A stretch of 64,000 bases of DNA from Amoebophrya sp. A120. Lineage: Eukaryota; Protista; Dinoflagellata. Below, one piece after another: positions 10,427 through 47,000 of the stretch. The stretch covers positions 6,972,358 through 7,036,357 of the forward strand of contig CAJINV010000004.1 in the NCBI GenBank assembly GCA_905178155.1, written 5' to 3'. Under the pieces are notes generated by a model. The model ran no database searches. It had not been told where the DNA came from and worked only from the letters and a program-made list of their open reading frames with translations. Numbering within the stretch: position 1 is the first letter of the stretch; each line of letters begins with the position of its first letter. Both the position numbers and the translations under genes were made by a program.

Positions 10427-11482
10427 GGAGTGAATGAGATTGTTTCAGCTTGTGCGGATCTGTAGATCGGTACAAACTCGTATCACAGGAAAAAGTGTAG
10501 ACGTAGACGGTTTTAAGAAAATGCAACAAAAAAATTTTGTGAGCACCCTAGAGGATATTACGAATGCCATAAGAACACGCACTCACATGGCTAGCTATTG
10601 CGGGACTCCTTTGTAGCTTAATTCATTTGCGCTAGCTTGTGCAAAAGGTCTGGGCGCCGTCCTGCCGATCCATCAAGTGCCGTTCGAGGAGACCTGTCTG
10701 GACAACCACTGTTCCTGGCCCGGGGTTGTAACGCCCCAGAAACAGGCCGGCTGGGTGGAGTCTGCAACTTTCCGGCTGAGAGTCAGGCAATTCTCCGGCG
10801 GGAACGTCAGCAGGGTTTCCCTGCGAGAGGGCTGGGCCGCCGCAAATAAGGCGCTAACCCAGTTGGCGGAGGCGAAGCTGATTGACAGTGAAGCGATGCG
10901 CCTGCTCACGGCTCGCAAAACCCTCGCAAAGCCCTGGCGAACTGTGTTGATTGTCTCTAGGGAATTCGTCTGCTGTTCAAATTTTGCGACTTATCTGCTC
11001 ACCATTTTGAACAAAAAAACCGGAGCTCGGAAATTTTGCCTGCCTCCAAGGCCAAATTTCCAAGGTACCCCAAAAACCGTCTACATCGACACTAGACTGC
11101 ATGGCATGGTCCATGTAGACGGTCAAAAAGTGGCCCTGACCAACAAAAAACCCCAGAAAAACCGTCTACGTCGCATCTAGACTGCGTGCTATGGTCGATT
11201 CAGGAGCTCCAAAAGGGTCGCCAGTCCCGGGACCCCGTTTTGGAAGGGCCGAGTCGACCATAGCAGGCAGTCTGGAGGCGACGTAGACGGTTTTTTGCAG
11301 ACGTGGCTTTTTTGAGCTCAAAATGGTGCCAGATGAACACTTTTTTCTGCCGGTCTCGGGGAGACCCTGAAAAACCGTCTACATCGCATATAGACTGCAT
11401 GCTATGGTCGACTCAGCCCTTCCAAAACGGAGTGAGTGAGATTGTGTGACCTTGTGTGGATCTGTAGATCGGTACAAACTCG
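10427..11482. repeat. Intergenic composite repeat: 54-bp direct repeats around ~950 bp with AAAACCGTCTAC...TAGACTGC units and a ~60-bp inverted repeat
   Basis: 10427-10480 matches 11429-11482 with 5 mismatches; units at ~11072, ~11157 and 11370, inverted at 11235-11296. Confidence 0.75.
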
Positions 11483-36900: not shown

Positions 36901-38266
36901 AGGACTTGCTGAATTTCGGCGACCAGCCGCATCTCGGCGGGAATGAAAAAGCAGTTCTGCGCGGTCTTCGGGTTGAACACCAAACGGGAGGAAAAATCGA
37001 TGCGGTAGCACTTGCTGGTCGACGACGTTGTGGCGGCAGGTGAAGTAGGTGTTGCAGCGCCGGCAGTGTCCGCAGGTGAGGACTTCTTCTTGTCCTCCTC
37101 CAGGGAATCCGCATAGATTGCTGTAGATGTAGTGGTGGAGAATCAGATTTATTTCAGGTCGGTGGTTCATTTCTTCATCGGTGATTGATTCTTTGCAAAG
37201 CGACACGAAAAGCACGCAATTAAGCGTCTGTTGACAATCATCATCATCATCATCATGCTGAGAACGAAGTCATGCATACGCATACGGCACGCAGCTGCAG
37301 GTGGTATCTGAATCTGATGGTTGCTTGTATTCCTTCTCGAGATTCACGATATCAAGCAGAAGGTCGTTGAGAAGCCGTACGAATGTGAAATGAAATAACA
37401 ATAGGCACCATTCCAAAAGCATTTGATATACCGAGTGCCCACAGTGCGTTTTGTGCGATCTGTATTTTGCTTTTTCGCGCCGCTCGGTACAGGGGCCGCG
37501 TGGCCTTGTCCTGCTTTGCCGGGTCCGGAGGGAGGTACAAGGTGTCGTCGTTTTTCGAAAACAGCGTCAGCGGATCCTCTATACCAGCGTCGGTGAATTC
37601 GCGCAGGAGAAAGTCCGCAATGCGTAAATACAGCACTTCCTCGCACACTTTGTCGACCAACTTGAGCACGTCCCGACTGGTCACGGGGGCTGGCCCGGTA
37701 GTACGACCGCCTGAAGTTGCTTTATTCAACATCCCAGGTGCATCTTTTCTATTCAGCCTTTCCAGCTGCAGCAAATGCCACAGCGGCAGATCCTCGGTTT
37801 GGGTGGTCAATTGGTGCAGCGCGAAGTTGTTCGCGGTCTGCTTTGCGCCGGTGCTGCCTGCGGTCTTCTGGGTCCGGGTGGACGCACTAGCGGTGGACGG
37901 AAAATATTTGGCCAGGGGTTCGGTGGACCAGAGCGCTGCTGCGTCATCCGCCGCAATGGCTGGCACAGGAGCTGTTGCGCTATCGTCCGACGCCGAAAGG
38001 ATTTTTTCGCCCTTGTTGATGGACCTTTGCAGCGCGTTCATGCCAAACAATCCCCGCTCCGCCTGCAGTGCCTCCTTCGGTGTCGGGCTCTTGGTGCTCG
38101 TCGGCGCGTTTGCTGTACTAGAAGAAGCCCCAACATCAACATCTCCTGCTTTACGAGTTCTTTGCGAAAGGACTTTCTGCAGCACGCCGATGTAGTAGTC
38201 GCGAAAGAGGTCCAGCCCCGCTGCAATCCACTCGGCCTGCGTTTTTTTGCTGCTGGGGGAAGACAT
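24927..38266 (-). CDS. Very large low-complexity hypothetical protein (~3,384 aa) with 12 introners and 1 GT-AG intron (37121-37431)
   Basis: All 13 junctions join neighbouring ORFs in frame; spliced length 10,155 nt is divisible by 3. Confidence 0.72.
25539..25700. mobile_element. Introner family H
   Basis: TIR TATCAAGCAAAAAAGTGTTAACGTTAA / TTAACGTTAACACTTTTCGCTGTGATA; TSD TCTGC/TCTAC. Confidence 0.88.
26216..26360. mobile_element. Introner family B
   Basis: Family-B TIRs; TSD TTCTG. Confidence 0.92.
26406..26667. mobile_element. Introner family A
   Basis: Family-A TIRs; TSD ACAAC. Confidence 0.92.
27987..28136. mobile_element. Introner family B
   Basis: Family-B TIRs, opposite orientation to 26216; TSD GCGAA/GCAAA. 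Confidence 0.9.
28233..28387. mobile_element. Introner family B
   Basis: Family-B TIRs; TSD TGTGT. Confidence 0.92.
28467..28729. mobile_element. Introner family A
   Basis: Family-A TIRs; TSD CGGCA. Confidence 0.92.
32324..32613. mobile_element. Introner family A
   Basis: Family-A TIRs; TSD ACTTG. Confidence 0.92.
32698..32976. mobile_element. Introner family D
   Basis: TIR TATCCTGAGTAAAAACGTACCCACACCAGAGT; TSD CTCGT. Confidence 0.93.
34072..34335. mobile_element. Introner family A
   Basis: Family-A TIRs; TSD CAGAA/CGGAA. Confidence 0.9.
34717..34970. mobile_element. Introner family A
   Basis: Family-A TIRs; TSD CCGGT. Confidence 0.92.
35005..35325. mobile_element. Introner family E
   Basis: Family-E TIRs; TSD TTCGC/TCCGC; paralog of 3708-4035. 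Confidence 0.9.
36514..36782. mobile_element. Introner family A
   Basis: Family-A TIRs; TSD TTTCT. Confidence 0.92.
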
Positions 38267-40351: not shown

Positions 40352-43282
40352 TTACACGACTTCTAAGTCGAGTTTGTTGTCGGAGAAGTTCAGTATGTCA
40401 TAGTTCTTCTCCCGCATCTCGTGCGTGCGGATCGCGTATCAAATGCAAATATGTCTCGTTCTGGAAACTACTTGAGGACGTCTCCAGTGCCGGCCACGCA
40501 TGACAAGTTTTTAAGCTCCTAGGTGCGTGTTGCCTGTTCTGCATGGCAATGTGCGTTTCGGATGACAGGAAACTGGGGTGTTTCTGTAGCGTGCATGAGC
40601 ATGACAGACTTGAGAATCATGCTGGCCGAGCATGACAAACTTTGCATTTTCCAGACCCAGACATATTTGCAATGCATATCGCACGCGCCCGAGCCATTTC
40701 GCGCCCGGCGTCCGAGGAGTCGAAGAGGCGGTAGTGCGCTATGGGACTCTCAAACGTTACACTCCCAACCTCTACATGATTTGTCATGCACAATGGGAAT
40801 CAGAATCGACACGATCAAGCTGTCTCGCATGACAAATCATCGAAGGGCCAAACAGGCTGAGAACCTGCGCCAAATCTGTCGTGCAAGACACGTCAACTAC
40901 ATGTCCCCGCTTTCACTTTGGCCATTCTTGCATTACAAATCCGTGTAACAGTTGAACATGTAACAGTTGAGAGCGCCATATGCGTGTCAAAGTAGCGGTA
41001 GGGGTGCCTTACCGGGTCGACGTCTTTGCGCTGGATGGGAATGTCGTGCGATCTGGGATCTACCATCGGAAACCGGTTCAAACCTTTACAGTGTATAGTG
41101 AATTTATGGGTGTGTCAGGATCGAAATTCTCAAAGTTGAAAAAAAAATCCGGGGGCCCCTGAAGAGGTGCCGGCATTTTGCGTTTCAACTCTGACACATT
41201 CGCCCCCCCTCCGAGCTAGCCACCACGCTATGCTGGAGTGTGTCAGAGTTGAAGGGGGTCCCGGAGGGGGTGCCCTGAAGGCCCCCGCCAAGGACTGCCA
41301 GAATTTTTTTTCAACTTTGACGATTTCAATCCTGACACTGCCATAGAATTTTCTTCAGAAGCTGCAAGCGAGATCTATAGGGATTTTCTTGCACGACGAA
41401 GATGTAGATGATGAAATACAACGATAAGATCAAAGCGAATGACTAGAAGTACGATGAACAAATTGCTTCTAATATTAACGTAATATACCGTTCTTAACAT
41501 TCTCGTGTTGTGGGTGGGTAATCGCCTCGTTGGCCTGTCTTTCAAATGCAAAAATGTCTGGGTCTGGAAGATTTCTGGATTTGTCATGCATATTTTCCAT
41601 GACCCGTGATGTCTGTGACGCATGCCGTAGCATCAGAGATTTTTGGGGCGCTTCTTCATGCCTGTTCCGCATGACAAATGCCATCTCCGCGGAGCACAAA
41701 ATCTACTCCTCTTACTGATCACGCAATACAAATCTTTTTCGAATCCAGAGAGAGCATCACAAGTTTAGAATCTTCCAGACCCAGACATTTTTGCACTTGA
41801 TACTGTCGCTTCTCCTTCAGAAACTCTCGCCTTTGGTCTGCGTGACTCGCGTCTGCCTGTGCTTGGTACATATCGTACCTAGGTGTCGGGTGCGTTGTTT
41901 TTTCCGACGTAGCTGTCATGCAGGATGAACAATACAAAGTAGCTCAGCAATACAAATTAAATTTGTATTAATGCGGATCTGCCTTAAAACAAAGATTTGT
42001 AATGCATGAAAGCATGTGCTTATCCATTTGCTACCTTTCTTTGTAGAGTTCCGTTTCCGGTCTTGTAGGTCCATCGATTCCCGTCAGACCGTTTTTGTAG
42101 TGCCTCTGGATCAACTTCGACTGCCTCTTGAATCTGTGAAATATTTTTTCATTTGATTTACGCCCCGTGCATTACCTTTATGTAGCGACGACTACCGCTG
42201 GCGCTACGGGTACGACCATGCGAAAAGACTATATTTTTTTCAAGTAGACCAAAGACAAAAAATGCTGTGTTTGAAAGAAAAAGAGGAATTACAGCGAGAA
42301 AAAACATAAAGTACGCTGAAAGCTCGGCTTTTGCTTTGTTTGCGTAGGCGATGCCCTCTTTTAGCCTCTGGTTTTCTCGGAGTCGCTCACTCGGGAGCTG
42401 TATGGAGAAGTTCTTAAAGATTTCCAGGTGGTCTTGGTTTATTGGGTGAAAGCCCGGGAGCTTGTGGCACCCCTCCTTCTTGTCGCCCTTGTAGCCGTCG
42501 TACCTGCGAAGTAATTTTTGAATTTCAGTTGCGTTGCGTACCTGCCAGTGTTCAACTCTTTTAAACCAGAACCTTTCAGACGTCGCGTTTCTTGGAAAGG
42601 CTTACACGACAGCTGCATCATTTACATATGATGTTGTGCGCCCTAAGTAAAAATGCAACGAAAAAATTAGTTTTTTTGATGAACAGCACACTTCATTTTG
42701 ACGAGAAACAGAAAGAGGAACTCCAATCATACCATAATGGTGGCTTATTTGACATGTCCATGGCTATTCCCGGGAATTTTCGGTCCCTTCCTTCGCATGT
42801 GAACGAGGGTGATGGTCTGCTGGACCCGTGGCAGTTTGCGAGGGGCAGCGTGCGGCTGAATTTGTCGGAGTCCCGGGTGTTCTGGTTTTTGTAGTACGGA
42901 TCGTGTATGGGAGTGTCAGGTTTGAAATCGTCACAGTTGAAATAGTTTGTCATGCATAAAGATAAAACCGATATATGCCAGCCAAGCGGCGCGTGACAAA
43001 TTTTCTTTTTCCGAGCGCCGGAATCCAATTTGTCTTGCTGTTTGGGAGCAGCAAACTGCTTTTGTCATGCTACTTTAGCAGCTCTACTTCAAACCCTACA
43101 CAGGCTCACAATCGGCCTCACTTGCTATCCCGGCAAGAAAGCCACTTCATGTCTTGCATTTTATGCATGACAAATTATTTCAACTTTGTCAATTTCAAAC
43201 CAGACACTTCCATACCGTGCGTTTTCAGCATACCATCGAGCCGGAGCGCCTCGTGCGGCGCCGGCTGGACTGTGTAGGACAT
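40352..43282 (-). CDS. Multi-exon hypothetical protein (mix of canonical and introner introns; middle exons not fully resolved)
   Basis: In-frame exon chain KLIQRHYKNGLTGIDGP...RYDMYQ...KRQ|ANEA...KNG|LNRFP...TH|YRLF...RA|IRTHEMREKNYDILNF; first exon MSYTVQPAPHE. Confidence 0.6.
40437..40678. mobile_element. Introner family A
   Basis: Family-A TIRs; TSD TCGCG/TCGCA. Confidence 0.88.
40740..40980. mobile_element. Introner family I
   Basis: TATGGGACTCTCAAACGTTACA / TGTAACAGTTGAGAGCGCCATA; TSD TGCGC/TGCGT. Confidence 0.86.
41105..41345. mobile_element. Family-C-ended MITE inside a canonical GT-AG intron (41084-41488)
   Basis: Family-C TIRs; TSD GAATT; distinct GC-rich interior lacking TGTNATGC motifs. 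Confidence 0.88.
41540..41802. mobile_element. Introner family A
   Basis: Family-A TIRs (left end TTT instead of TAT); TSD CTGTC. Confidence 0.9.
41879..42034 (-). other. GT-AG intron derived from a decayed family-B introner
   Basis: Interior resembles family B; flanked by TACCT direct repeats (AG|GTA on the mRNA strand); TIRs eroded. Confidence 0.7.
42906..43214. mobile_element. Introner family C
   Basis: Family-C TIRs; TSD TCGTG/CCGTG. Confidence 0.9.
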
Positions 43283-44044: not shown

Positions 44045-47000
44045 CTATGACTGTCGTGACCGTTTCGCCCCCGGTAATCCTCCGCCCCCATCTTGGAGGT
44101 CCCCTAAATCTCGCACCTCCCCGCCCCCGCCCGCCACAGCGTCCCACCAGGCCTGTGTCGGAGCCAACGATACTACCAGCGCCGTCAAGTTGTCCAACGA
44201 GTACCGCTGGAAGCTCTCCCGCACCACTCCGCGCGCACCCTGTGCGGCCGCGTGTCGGACCGGGTGCGTCAGCGTGCCGGCGGGGGACAAGCGGAGCAGG
44301 TCGGCCCGGGGCTTCAGCACCATTTCCAACCCCGCACGGTAGTGGCCGTGACACACCGTCGCAGCATCGTGGTCGGAAACCACGTCCCACACACCATCGC
44401 ACGCTAAGAGGAGCAGAAGGTCGCGGCCTGGTGTTTTGAGAAGTAGAGGTGGATGTTGAGCTCGGAAGGCACATGAAGAAACATCAAATAAAAAGTCGAA
44501 CTAAAGAAACGTCGCGAAATAAAAACCCAGTAGCAACATCATATGCGAAAATAGAAGGTGGATCACTGTGATTCACAAAAGGTGGCAAAGAATCTACTCG
44601 CGGATTAAGTATGTATTTACCTGGCGTGATATGAAAACACGTGATCTCGGGTTTGGCGGACACCAGGTCCCTCGCGCCTTCTATCAAATGCAAAAATGTC
44701 TGGGTCTCGAAACTTGTAATGCTAACAGTGTATCATGATAGACGCACTACAATACGCAGCTACGCATGACAAATCTTTTGGCTGCAGTGTCTTACGTATT
44801 CCGCATGGCAAACTGCGTTTTTGCATGACAGGCAAGAGGCGGGCCTTTTCGTGCCTATGCAACACAGGTTCTCGAATCATGCTAGACAAGCATGACAAAC
44901 TTGCACTCTTCCAGACCCAGACATATTTGCATGTGATACCCTCGTTCGGCGCACCAAAGCTCCGCGGGTCTTTCAGAGGCAAATCGCCAAAGCTGCGGCT
45001 GACCGCCAGCCCCCACTGCACGAACCGATCGCCGATCTGCAACGGCGAGGGGGTGAACACGCGCGCCACGCCGGTCATGTCCTGCACAACTCCGCCGCTG
45101 GCCTCGATGCGCCGCTTTTCGTCGGGCCGGTCCGGTTTGTGGTCGTCTGAGAGGCGGTAGCCGGACACCGGCCCGCAGGGGACGAAAATCTTCCTCTCCG
45201 GCGGTGATGGGTCTTGTTTACCATCCTTGTCCCTGTCCTTTTTGTTCTTTGCGTTGTCTTTTTCCTTGCCCGCCGCGGTGCTTGTTCCAGGTATTGGGGC
45301 GTGCTTCACCGTGCGGTAACTCCCGTCCTTCTGCTGAATCGGGCCCTTCTTTTGAACCTAGGATGGACCGGAGATCGTGGAATTTATGGATTAGCATTAG
45401 GTAATGCTTGCTAGTAAACGTTGGATATCTATTACGGGTTCATCGTACGGGAACGGGTTCGGGTAAAAGAAGAAGCACAATAAACAGATCAGAACTACTA
45501 TTGGTTGTCACAATCATATATAATGTCAGATCATAGTACCATCACAGCTCTTGTGTCCCCGATGTTTGCGATCATGAGACGCACGTTGCTGCATTGCGAG
45601 GGGTCGGACGGAAGTCGCAGGTCCGGGGAGTCTTCCCACACTTTGTCGCTGCTGGTATTCTTTCCACCGCCGCCGCCCCGCGACGAGCCCGAGGAGGAGG
45701 AACTTGTGCTCCACAGATCCTCCCACAAAATCCCCACTGTGGCGGTAGTGCCGTCCATGTCGAGCGTGGTTTTGGCCTGCTTGCACCACTTTCGGTCCAA
45801 CTCCTCGAAGGTGTCTTCCACGCATTGCCTCAAGTACCGCTCGGTAAGCTTGTCGTCGACAGAACTGTCTTTTTTATTCTTATTTCCACCACTAGAGGAA
45901 GAAGAAGCACTCTTCGCGTTCTTGGCGCCTCCTGCTGTACTATCGGGCAGCTGCAACTCCCCGTCAAGCTCGTCGTCCGAGTCGGATTTGTTGTTTCTGC
46001 CGAATTTGTTCGACTTCAGCTTCCGCTGCAGAATGGGAAACAGATTCTTCTGCGCGTACTCGCTGCACAGGTGCCCGCTGTGCCCGTCGAACACGGCGTA
46101 GCCCACCAGGTTCTCCTTCTGCGGGCCCTCCATCACACAGTCGTAGCAGAATCGGTCCTCCTATGACAGTTCACAACTCCCCCTCCCGGCCCTCATTTGT
46201 CATGCAAGACCCCGAATCCAGTCGCTGCCTTATGGCACTGTTTGCATGACAAGTTCTGGTAGCCTAAACAGTACTACATCAGGTATATAAAAAATTTGTC
46301 ACGCATAGGCTCCACGTGTGCTGGTGTTTGTATTGCTGCTCATGCCATACGAATGAGGGTGAGGCGGAGTTGTGCACTCTCATACCTCCTGCGCGTCCTT
46401 ACCGCCCATCCAGGTGGATACACCGCAAGACAGATCCAGCTCGGGAAAGATAGAGAGGTCCTTTTCGCTATACCTGTACGTCGTCGATGATGTTCGGATT
46501 GTGGTGATAAAACTCATGATCTCTAGTCGTGGGATGAAGAAAGGCGCACTATCTTGTCGTGCGAGGGCGGCCGCATTAGGTGGAGATGTTTGATGTGCAG
46601 ATAGAAGCAGTAGAACCAGGAGTGGACAACTTTTTGTTGAAAGTTCAATCTTTACTACGCGTATGCGTAAATGGTACTTTTTCAACAACTATTTCTATTA
46701 CCTGAGATGCGGGTACTGTCTCCCGCTGTCAAGCTCCTTGAATTCTGGATACAGCATACTATCCGGCGGAGGGTTCATTGGATCGATGTCCATCAGCTTG
46801 GGGCTGTTTTATAAATGAAATTTTGTCGAAGCTGCTTTTTTTGTCATTCATCTCATTGGATGGATATTATTTCGTGTAAGGTACATCGATACCTCGTCTA
46901 GAAGACTACATGCATCTTTGGGGGGTAGTTGTAGTTGAAAATGTAGTCAAAGTCAAATTTATACTTGTCCAGATCGTCTTCGTCCTCCTTCACGGCGCTC

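Follow-up and report, generated by a model that had tools for sequence, protein, structure and literature searches.

A spliced GT-AG intron of Amoebophrya sp. A120 holding a family-B introner core without terminal inverted repeats: probable origin from a mobile intron

The locus and its host gene

Amoebophrya sp. A120 is a marine parasite, the genes of which are rich in transposon-like introns with paired ends. The window analysed here is a stretch of 64,000 nucleotides from Amoebophrya sp. A120 (GCA_905178155.1, contig CAJINV010000004.1, positions 6,972,358 to 7,036,357), to which all coordinates refer unless a sampled locus is named. The features under study are collected in Table 1. The coding sequence of the host gene, as spliced according to the RNA joints, was identical to protein P0003, which is recorded as Amoebophrya sp. 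A120 and was matched by an exon of the gene at 100%. The host protein was 73–77% identical to two other Amoebophrya-type proteins and 33–77% identical across nine homologues; no Pfam family was found for it. The A25 protein and a third Amoebophrya-type protein aligned without a gap at the E-R-Y site, which is interrupted by the intron 41879–42034, and the seven more distant homologues revealed no comparable insertion and no gap beyond one residue near this site.

Table 1. Features of the host gene, the intron under study and the elements compared with it
Feature	Position	Strand	Details
Host gene CDS, 294 aa	40352..43282	-	8 introns in CDS (4 TIR introners, 4 GT-AG); RNA joints
GT-AG intron, 156 nt (GTA...CTAG)	41879..42034	-	RNA joint; phase 2, within Arg codon of E-R-Y
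Family-B introner core, 88 nt	41930..42017	-	Model positions 31-115 of 150, 3-nt insertion; 52.3 bits
Possible truncated inner 5' TIR	42016..42031	-	12/16 letters align; outer 8 nt and inner 9 nt missing; not significant
3' tail of 49 nt where family B has a 35-nt end	41881..41929	-	No TIR; 6-A run at 41898-41903 before the acceptor
AGGTA at donor (AG exonic, GTA intronic)	42032..42036	-	Sequence; likely one copy of a 5-bp target duplication
AGGTA at acceptor (AG intronic, GTA exonic)	41876..41880	-	Sequence; likely second copy of the duplication
405-nt GT-AG intron of the same gene, with intact nested TIR element	41084..41488	-	Joint 41081|41487
Control: family-A introner, GT-AG register, intact TIRs	44682..44938	-	End identities 0.92, 1.0
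Control: family-F introner, GGAGG duplication giving a GT-AG register, intact TIRs	46162..46384	-	End identities 0.88, 0.92
TIR-less predicted introns with canonical-looking 3' ends	L013, L028, L033, L039, L042, L045, L054, L064, L073		1-3 copies of the interior motif

The window is dense in repeats that start with TAT, end with ATA and are flanked by 5-bp direct repeats. Probable RNA contigs skipped such an element together with 5 nt in four direct joints (247, 246, 268 and 314), and the same skip followed from arithmetic on one contig for five stretches with ten elements. The consensus ends of family B hold cryptic GT and AG sites, such as an acceptor-like T run with CAG four letters from the tip, which appear to be ignored, since the RNA joints remove the element plus 5 nt.

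Several other arrangements of these elements were observed. The element nested in the 405-nt intron of the host gene (41105–41345) has a GAATT 5-bp repeat, tips of the C family and an internal inverted repeat at 41184–41253; this arrangement may be removed in two steps. In the sampled loci L005 (2277–2779), L009 (398–791), L021 (425–1177), L040 (2954–3429), L045 (1388–1808) and L049 (1609–2094), introners were interrupted by a further piece, inserted or duplicated; the two tips on the outside and the 5-bp repeat around them were largely preserved. A 311-nt GT-AG intron at 37121–37431, supported by length arithmetic, opens with GTA and continues with ten letters of the tip of family A, and its interior gave no family match. 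At 11063–11438, inverted and direct repeats are clustered that have neither TAT tips nor the introner motif.

Splicing of the intron 41879–42034

The joint 41875|42032 was present in all four probable RNA runs (X1–X4), which are Logan contigs regarded as RNA by guess and represent two samples of one study. The joint skips 156 nt, with CT..AC at cut +3, and five letters fit either side of it. Because of the 5-nt repeat there are six equivalent splice registers, one of which is GT-AG. No alternative joint was listed in the X1–X4 contigs, a form of data that drops rare variants, and the raw RNA reads over the stretch amounted to 27 in X8 and one in X9, all partial. A probable DNA run, which may be the source sample, matched 41776–42951 without any difference, which argues against an assembly error.

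The original prediction had described a 151-nt segment between two TACCT repeats, with GT-AG boundaries on the mRNA strand and a junction to be confirmed by cDNA. Both repeats were found at the positions given in Table 1 with 151 nt between them, the register of the RNA joint supported the boundaries and the junction was confirmed by the probable RNA in 4/4 runs. Removal from RNA in a GT...AG register is a property that the intron shares with canonical U2-type GT-AG introns. With regard to the local signals of such introns (GTA donor, YAG acceptor, G-poor and A-rich 3' region), a GTA, a TAG and a run of six A were observed. Its 3' end was average, scoring 1.3 in a crude 3'-end model against a median of 1.4, a value equalled by 49 of 467 decoy AGs.

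A family-B core out of register

The sample used for comparisons consisted of the window and 102 loci (362,574 bases) of one metagenome assembly. It was collected with an exact B-core pattern, which gave 103 stretches and favours well-kept copies; the intron 41879–42034 itself would not match it. The sample contained 448 distinct TIR elements, including 199 of family B, and 80 of these 199 were used to build the family-B profile.

The B-like interior claimed for the segment was borne out, as the profile matched 42017–41930 with 52.3 bits and an E value of 5e-18 in a 225-nt search. The best score of the other 12 family profiles on the intron was 15.7 bits. The core was 87% identical to the closest intact copy, and 38 of 173 intact copies were equally far or farther from their own nearest relative, so the core is preserved as well as that of intact copies.

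The position of the core within the segment is unusual for the family. Within the 151-nt segment, 14 nt precede the core on the 5' side and 49 nt follow it on the 3' side; the 167 of 199 B copies that aligned well have medians of 30 and 35 nt. The core is thus off-centre by about 15 nt, the distance being 16 nt too short on one side and 14 nt too long on the other. With respect to membership of the A120 TIR introner family B, the homologous interior is present and the register between core and ends is not.

Profile matches with neither tip were rare, making up 12 of 519 matches away from locus edges. According to model coordinates, 10 of the 12 reach a model end or sit in an element of another family, which leaves two core-only B cases, the intron 41879–42034 and the window segment 359–435. 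The latter is a second TIR-less B core, with unrelated flanks and a lone B end 1.2 kb away (1653–1702); inverted arms beside the two pieces (about 440–480 and 1600–1650) suggest one larger or composite element. A further candidate for a TIR-less B core, in L040, was rejected, since that element is split by a nested element.

The terminal repeats are missing

The TAT-initial terminal inverted repeats with an A run that characterize family B were absent from the intron, the tip scores of which were -13.0 and -9.1. In folding, the number of pairs expected to join the first 30 nt to the last 30 nt was 0.0, compared with a median of 18.9 in 80 sampled intact B copies, none of which was so low. Of the consensus, the first 25 columns were matched with an identity of 0.32 and the last 25 with 0.56, compared with 0.56–1.0 at both ends in 44 intact copies of similar core divergence.

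No significant terminal remnant was found at the 5' end, where 88 of 748 null pieces and 94 of 400 shuffles scored as high, or at the 3' end, where this was true of 54 of 63 canonical-intron ends and 72 of 400 shuffles. A run of at least five A, such as the one in the 3' tail, occurred in 11 of 63 predicted canonical introns and in none of 21 introners capable of GT-AG splicing.

The terminal repeats had been described as eroded. The absence of end pairing agrees with this, but with no significant remnant the repeats are gone rather than eroded, and the picture of an introner caught in the act of converting was overstated, the ends having already been lost. A well-kept core between unrecognizable ends implies that the repeats disappeared by removal or replacement and did not decay at the same rate as the core.

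It was also considered that the TIRs lie outside the TACCT pair and have become exonic, given a look-alike at 41856–41882. This was rejected because 411 of 5000 background pieces equalled the look-alike in the tip profile and 166–469 of 3000 in haplotype alignment, and the orthologues have no insertion.

Status of the AGGTA repeat

A 5-bp direct repeat at the junctions, a feature of family B, is present at the intron 41879–42034, and its interpretation as a target duplication, made in the original prediction, is probably correct. Perfect 5-nt repeats flanked 293 of 430 elements with both tips. Among predicted canonical introns, a repeat of this length or more was seen in 2 of 63 in one set and 1 of 72 in another (1–3%), sets that include false introns diluting the rate. 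On the other hand, all five RNA-supported GT-AG introns in the window begin with GTA, and with such donors any exonic AG|GTA site gives an AGGTA repeat, so the repeat could arise in this way alone. Two of the three other GT-AG introns of the host gene showed G|GT repeats of 3 and 4 nt. The family-B size that had been attributed to the segment was upheld, as 156 nt equals the family-B median plus 5; lengths of 149–170 nt were found in 5 of 63 predicted canonical introns.

No weaker terminal repeats in sampled copies with a GT-AG register

It had been proposed as a general rule that a duplication supplying AG|GT lets the standard spliceosome take over, whereupon the TIRs decay. The set for testing this rule comprised 426 elements with a flanking repeat matching in at least 4 of 5 positions, 93 of 519 matches being omitted for want of such a repeat. 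Families were pooled; fully decayed copies cannot enter such a set. The host strand was assigned by a codon model, partly trained on two RNA-supported genes, which called 32 of 33 window elements minus, among them all elements of these two genes.

A GT-AG register on the sense strand was available in 21 of the 426 elements (GT-AG-capable copies) and in 13 on the antisense strand. The number expected from repeat composition was 23 (15–33), which indicates no family-wide preference for AGG-containing target sites. TIR identity was 0.893 in the 21 capable copies and 0.886 in the rest (one-sided p 0.41), a comparison in which 21 copies can reveal a large effect only. The tip score and arm pairing were not lower in capable copies either, and this held for the 387 elements with a confident strand. 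Two capable introners with intact TIRs, of families A and F, lie within 5 kb of the intron 41879–42034 (controls in Table 1). A disturbed tip on one side was found in 3 of 21 capable copies and 27 of 405 others (p 0.18), a weak trend toward the proposed rule.

The TAT tips of capable copies had one mismatch in 126 sites, and those of the other copies had 33 in 2430; mismatches between the two TSD copies were 7 of 105 and 110 of 2025, respectively. At the TSD rate, 4–8 TAT mismatches would be expected in the capable copies, compared with the single one seen (Poisson p 0.08 to 0.002). For introners in general, TAT/ATA mismatches reached 27 of 2478 (1.1%) against 137 of 2065 (6.6%) between the two TSD copies, the former rate being biased downward by the location of tips with a tip profile. 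A crude split into coding and non-coding surroundings gave 25 of 2082 and 6 of 192 TAT mismatches, respectively, and a stricter split left four non-coding elements with 0 of 24.

The 21 capable copies thus have no weaker repeats, and the rule was not supported. TIR decay independent of the TSD sequence had been named in the original prediction as the outcome that would speak against it, and within this sample TIR conservation with and without AGGT registers followed that outcome. The accompanying idea that TIRs are kept by selection fared better in part: the tips look constrained, but equally so in copies with GT-AG. The low TAT mismatch rate fits selection on the tips after insertion, in GT-AG-capable copies as in the others. 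As the class combining TIRs with a GT-AG register keeps its tips, a GT-AG register alone seems not to be enough in A120, and the TAT...ATA ends appear to matter after insertion.

An introner motif in predicted canonical introns

Canonical introns were predicted with a program tuned on GTA donors, which mistakes some introners for GT-AG introns, and 50 of 113 predictions with an introner match were set aside. The motif search covered 72 predicted GT-AG introns without a TIR tip and without a strong family match. The interior motif of introners occurred 39 times in these introns, compared with 7.7 times in shuffles (maximum 16 in 300), an approximately fivefold excess. Its density was 2.75 per kb, compared with 0.6 in coding and 0.5 in other non-coding sequence of the window. 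At least one copy was carried by 27 of the 72 introns, and the motif was not tied to TSD-like junctions (6 of 27 carriers vs 8 of 45 others, p 0.76). Such introns may go back to introners that were converted or nested long ago, may be non-canonical introns of unmodelled families with a wrong prediction, or may share a functional motif.

Origin of the intron

The observation itself is real: the intron 41879–42034 is a spliced GT-AG intron that holds an introner core and lacks end pairing. It is likely a former mobile intron turned ordinary. Its precise origin is probable rather than proven, and the general rule drawn from it is not supported.

The favoured explanation, to which somewhat better than even chances were given, is that a family-B copy inserted at an exonic AGGTA, that the 5-bp duplication supplied both AG and GT and that the ends were later deleted or replaced in discrete steps. 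Insertion at AGGTA would have produced GTA–element–AG, presumably excised as the element plus 5 nt like its neighbours and initially dependent on the TAT...ATA ends, as the 21 other capable copies appear to be. Later, about 17 nt would have been deleted on the 5' side and the 3' end exchanged for an A-rich, canonical-looking tail. GT and AG would then have become the sole signals, and excision would now likely follow the ordinary U2-type route. With GT and AG supplied by the duplication, the loss of the ends would have been survivable, the duplication being permissive and not sufficient. By chance, about 5% of insertions (21/426) gain a GT-AG register. The gap between the donor and the core is 17 nt and aligns in order, if weakly, with the inner 5' TIR, and the gapless alignment of orthologues across ELYKERYDMY indicates that exactly one AGGTA stays in the mRNA. 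Against this origin, the element boundaries lack significant remnants, the length match is partly luck given the off-register core, and the 3' tail resembles ordinary canonical-intron sequence, which an older intron would provide for free. The case concerns a single intron (n = 1).

Such an older intron is the basis of the main competing explanation, in which a family-B copy became nested in a GT-AG intron already present at an AG|GTA proto-splice site, and this intron was trimmed on both sides to 156 nt. The AGGTA repeat would then reflect the canonical consensus plus chance, and TIRs would not be needed. This explanation seems possible but rather unlikely. The intact element inside the GT-AG intron 41084–41488 of the same gene corresponds to its starting state, interruption of one element by another is found in L005, L009, L021, L040 and L049, flanking deletions would yield an intact core with missing ends, and the canonical A run of the 3' tail is explained more cheaply. 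In addition, Farhat 2021 (PMC7789003) gives a canonical share of 98.6% for the introns whose positions A25 and A120 have in common, a group amounting to 19.4% of the introns of A120, and motif-bearing canonical introns show no enrichment of TSD-like junctions (the 6/27 and 8/45 given above). However, nesting calls for a repeat coincidence of 1–3%, a length coincidence of about 8% (5/63) and a breakpoint within 17 nt of the donor, and two non-coding-like flanks were found in just 4 of 425 elements. As a matter of judgement and not of computation, exonic insertion was considered about twice as probable as nesting. The same coincidences burden a further explanation, in which break repair or gene conversion copied a piece of a family-B core, never a whole element, into a GT-AG intron that was already there, and for which, moreover, no donor with matching breakpoints was present among the 199 B copies. 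The lack of significant terminal remnants agrees with such copying, and the TIR-less core at 359–435 indicates that cores can occur without ends, but this route appears improbable.

Still less probable is the rule originally proposed, by which the spliceosome takes charge of the intron as soon as a TSD provides AG|GT, the TIRs are no longer under selection and the repeats erode gradually. In its favour are the location of the one TIR-less core found in a spliced intron, which is indeed such a site (a post hoc observation, n = 1), the higher share of disturbed tips (3/21 vs 27/405) and a predicted 160-nt GT-AG intron with a worn TIR in L066. The latter has a GT-AG register, a worn TAT tip, a better 3' tip and a 2/5 repeat, features which, judged from its sequence, would suit a conversion intermediate. 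In the 21 capable copies, on the contrary, TIR identity, tip score and arm pairing are undiminished, the number of such copies is not depleted relative to the 23 expected and one TAT mismatch is seen where 4–8 were expected, and uniform erosion cannot leave an 87% core beside unrecognizable ends.

Extending exonic insertion followed by end replacement to the genome, A120 might domesticate introners into GT-AG introns at large scale in two steps. GT and AG would come from the TSD or from mutation, leaving the intron still bound to its TAT...ATA ends, and a later end replacement bringing a canonical 3' tail would complete the switch. The intron 41879–42034 would be the youngest finished product in the sample and the motif in 27 of 72 predicted introns a trace of older ones. 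This extension is speculative and, on balance, unlikely. The analysis defines three natural classes: introners with TIRs only, those with TIRs and a GT-AG register (about 5%) and GT-AG introns with a core and no TIRs, represented by 41879–42034. As a single locus, this intron is a well-documented curiosity. Should conversion be frequent, the pool of ordinary introns would be supplied by introns of transposon origin that have a splicing route of their own, as has been proposed in euglenids on the basis of one example.

Comparison with known systems

The introners of A120 have been described as starting with TAT, followed by seven variable letters and an A run, with direct repeats of 3–5 nt (Farhat 2021, PMC7789003). 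The same paper reports tens of thousands of non-canonical introns in A120, inverted and direct repeats in 15% of its canonical introns, and U1 snRNA as not detected in either strain. The elements of the window fit this description in their 5-bp repeats and in the RNA skips of the element plus 5 nt. The intron 41879–42034 departs from it, having a direct repeat and a family core without an inverted repeat. TIR-less cores in GT-AG introns, or TIR decay in relation to the repeat sequence, are not described in the portions of the PMC7789003 text covered here. The conversion of introners is likewise not treated in the portions covered of PMC12621601 and PMC12130899, and no description of TIR-less introner cores in A120 GT-AG introns was found in the passages of the literature covered.

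The derivation of the donor and acceptor sites from the TSD or the insertion site has parallels in the introner-like elements of another dinoflagellate, Polarella glacialis (Roy et al., bioRxiv 10.1101/2020.10.14.339549), where AGGH is found in class 14 and NAGGH or NNAGG in the 5-nt TSD of class 12, and in the introners of Florenciella (Gozashti et al. 2022, PMC9860276); co-option of the TSD for splice sites is also reported in PMC11282704. In Polarella and Florenciella, as far as these accounts describe it, TSD-derived sites are the normal route of a family, whereas family B of A120 and its neighbours show no such preference and the capable copies are a chance subset.

A further comparison is offered by the euglenids, the non-conventional splicing code of which was addressed for Euglena by Nomura et al. 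2025 (PMC12501133). In Euglena agilis, an intron may have changed from non-conventional to conventional, according to Milanowski et al. 2016 (PMC4770533). The euglenid intermediate introns, as presented there, keep paired ends and in this respect match the 21 GT-AG-capable copies of A120. Compared with them, the intron 41879–42034 stands one step further, with its pairing lost and its ancestry visible in the core alone.
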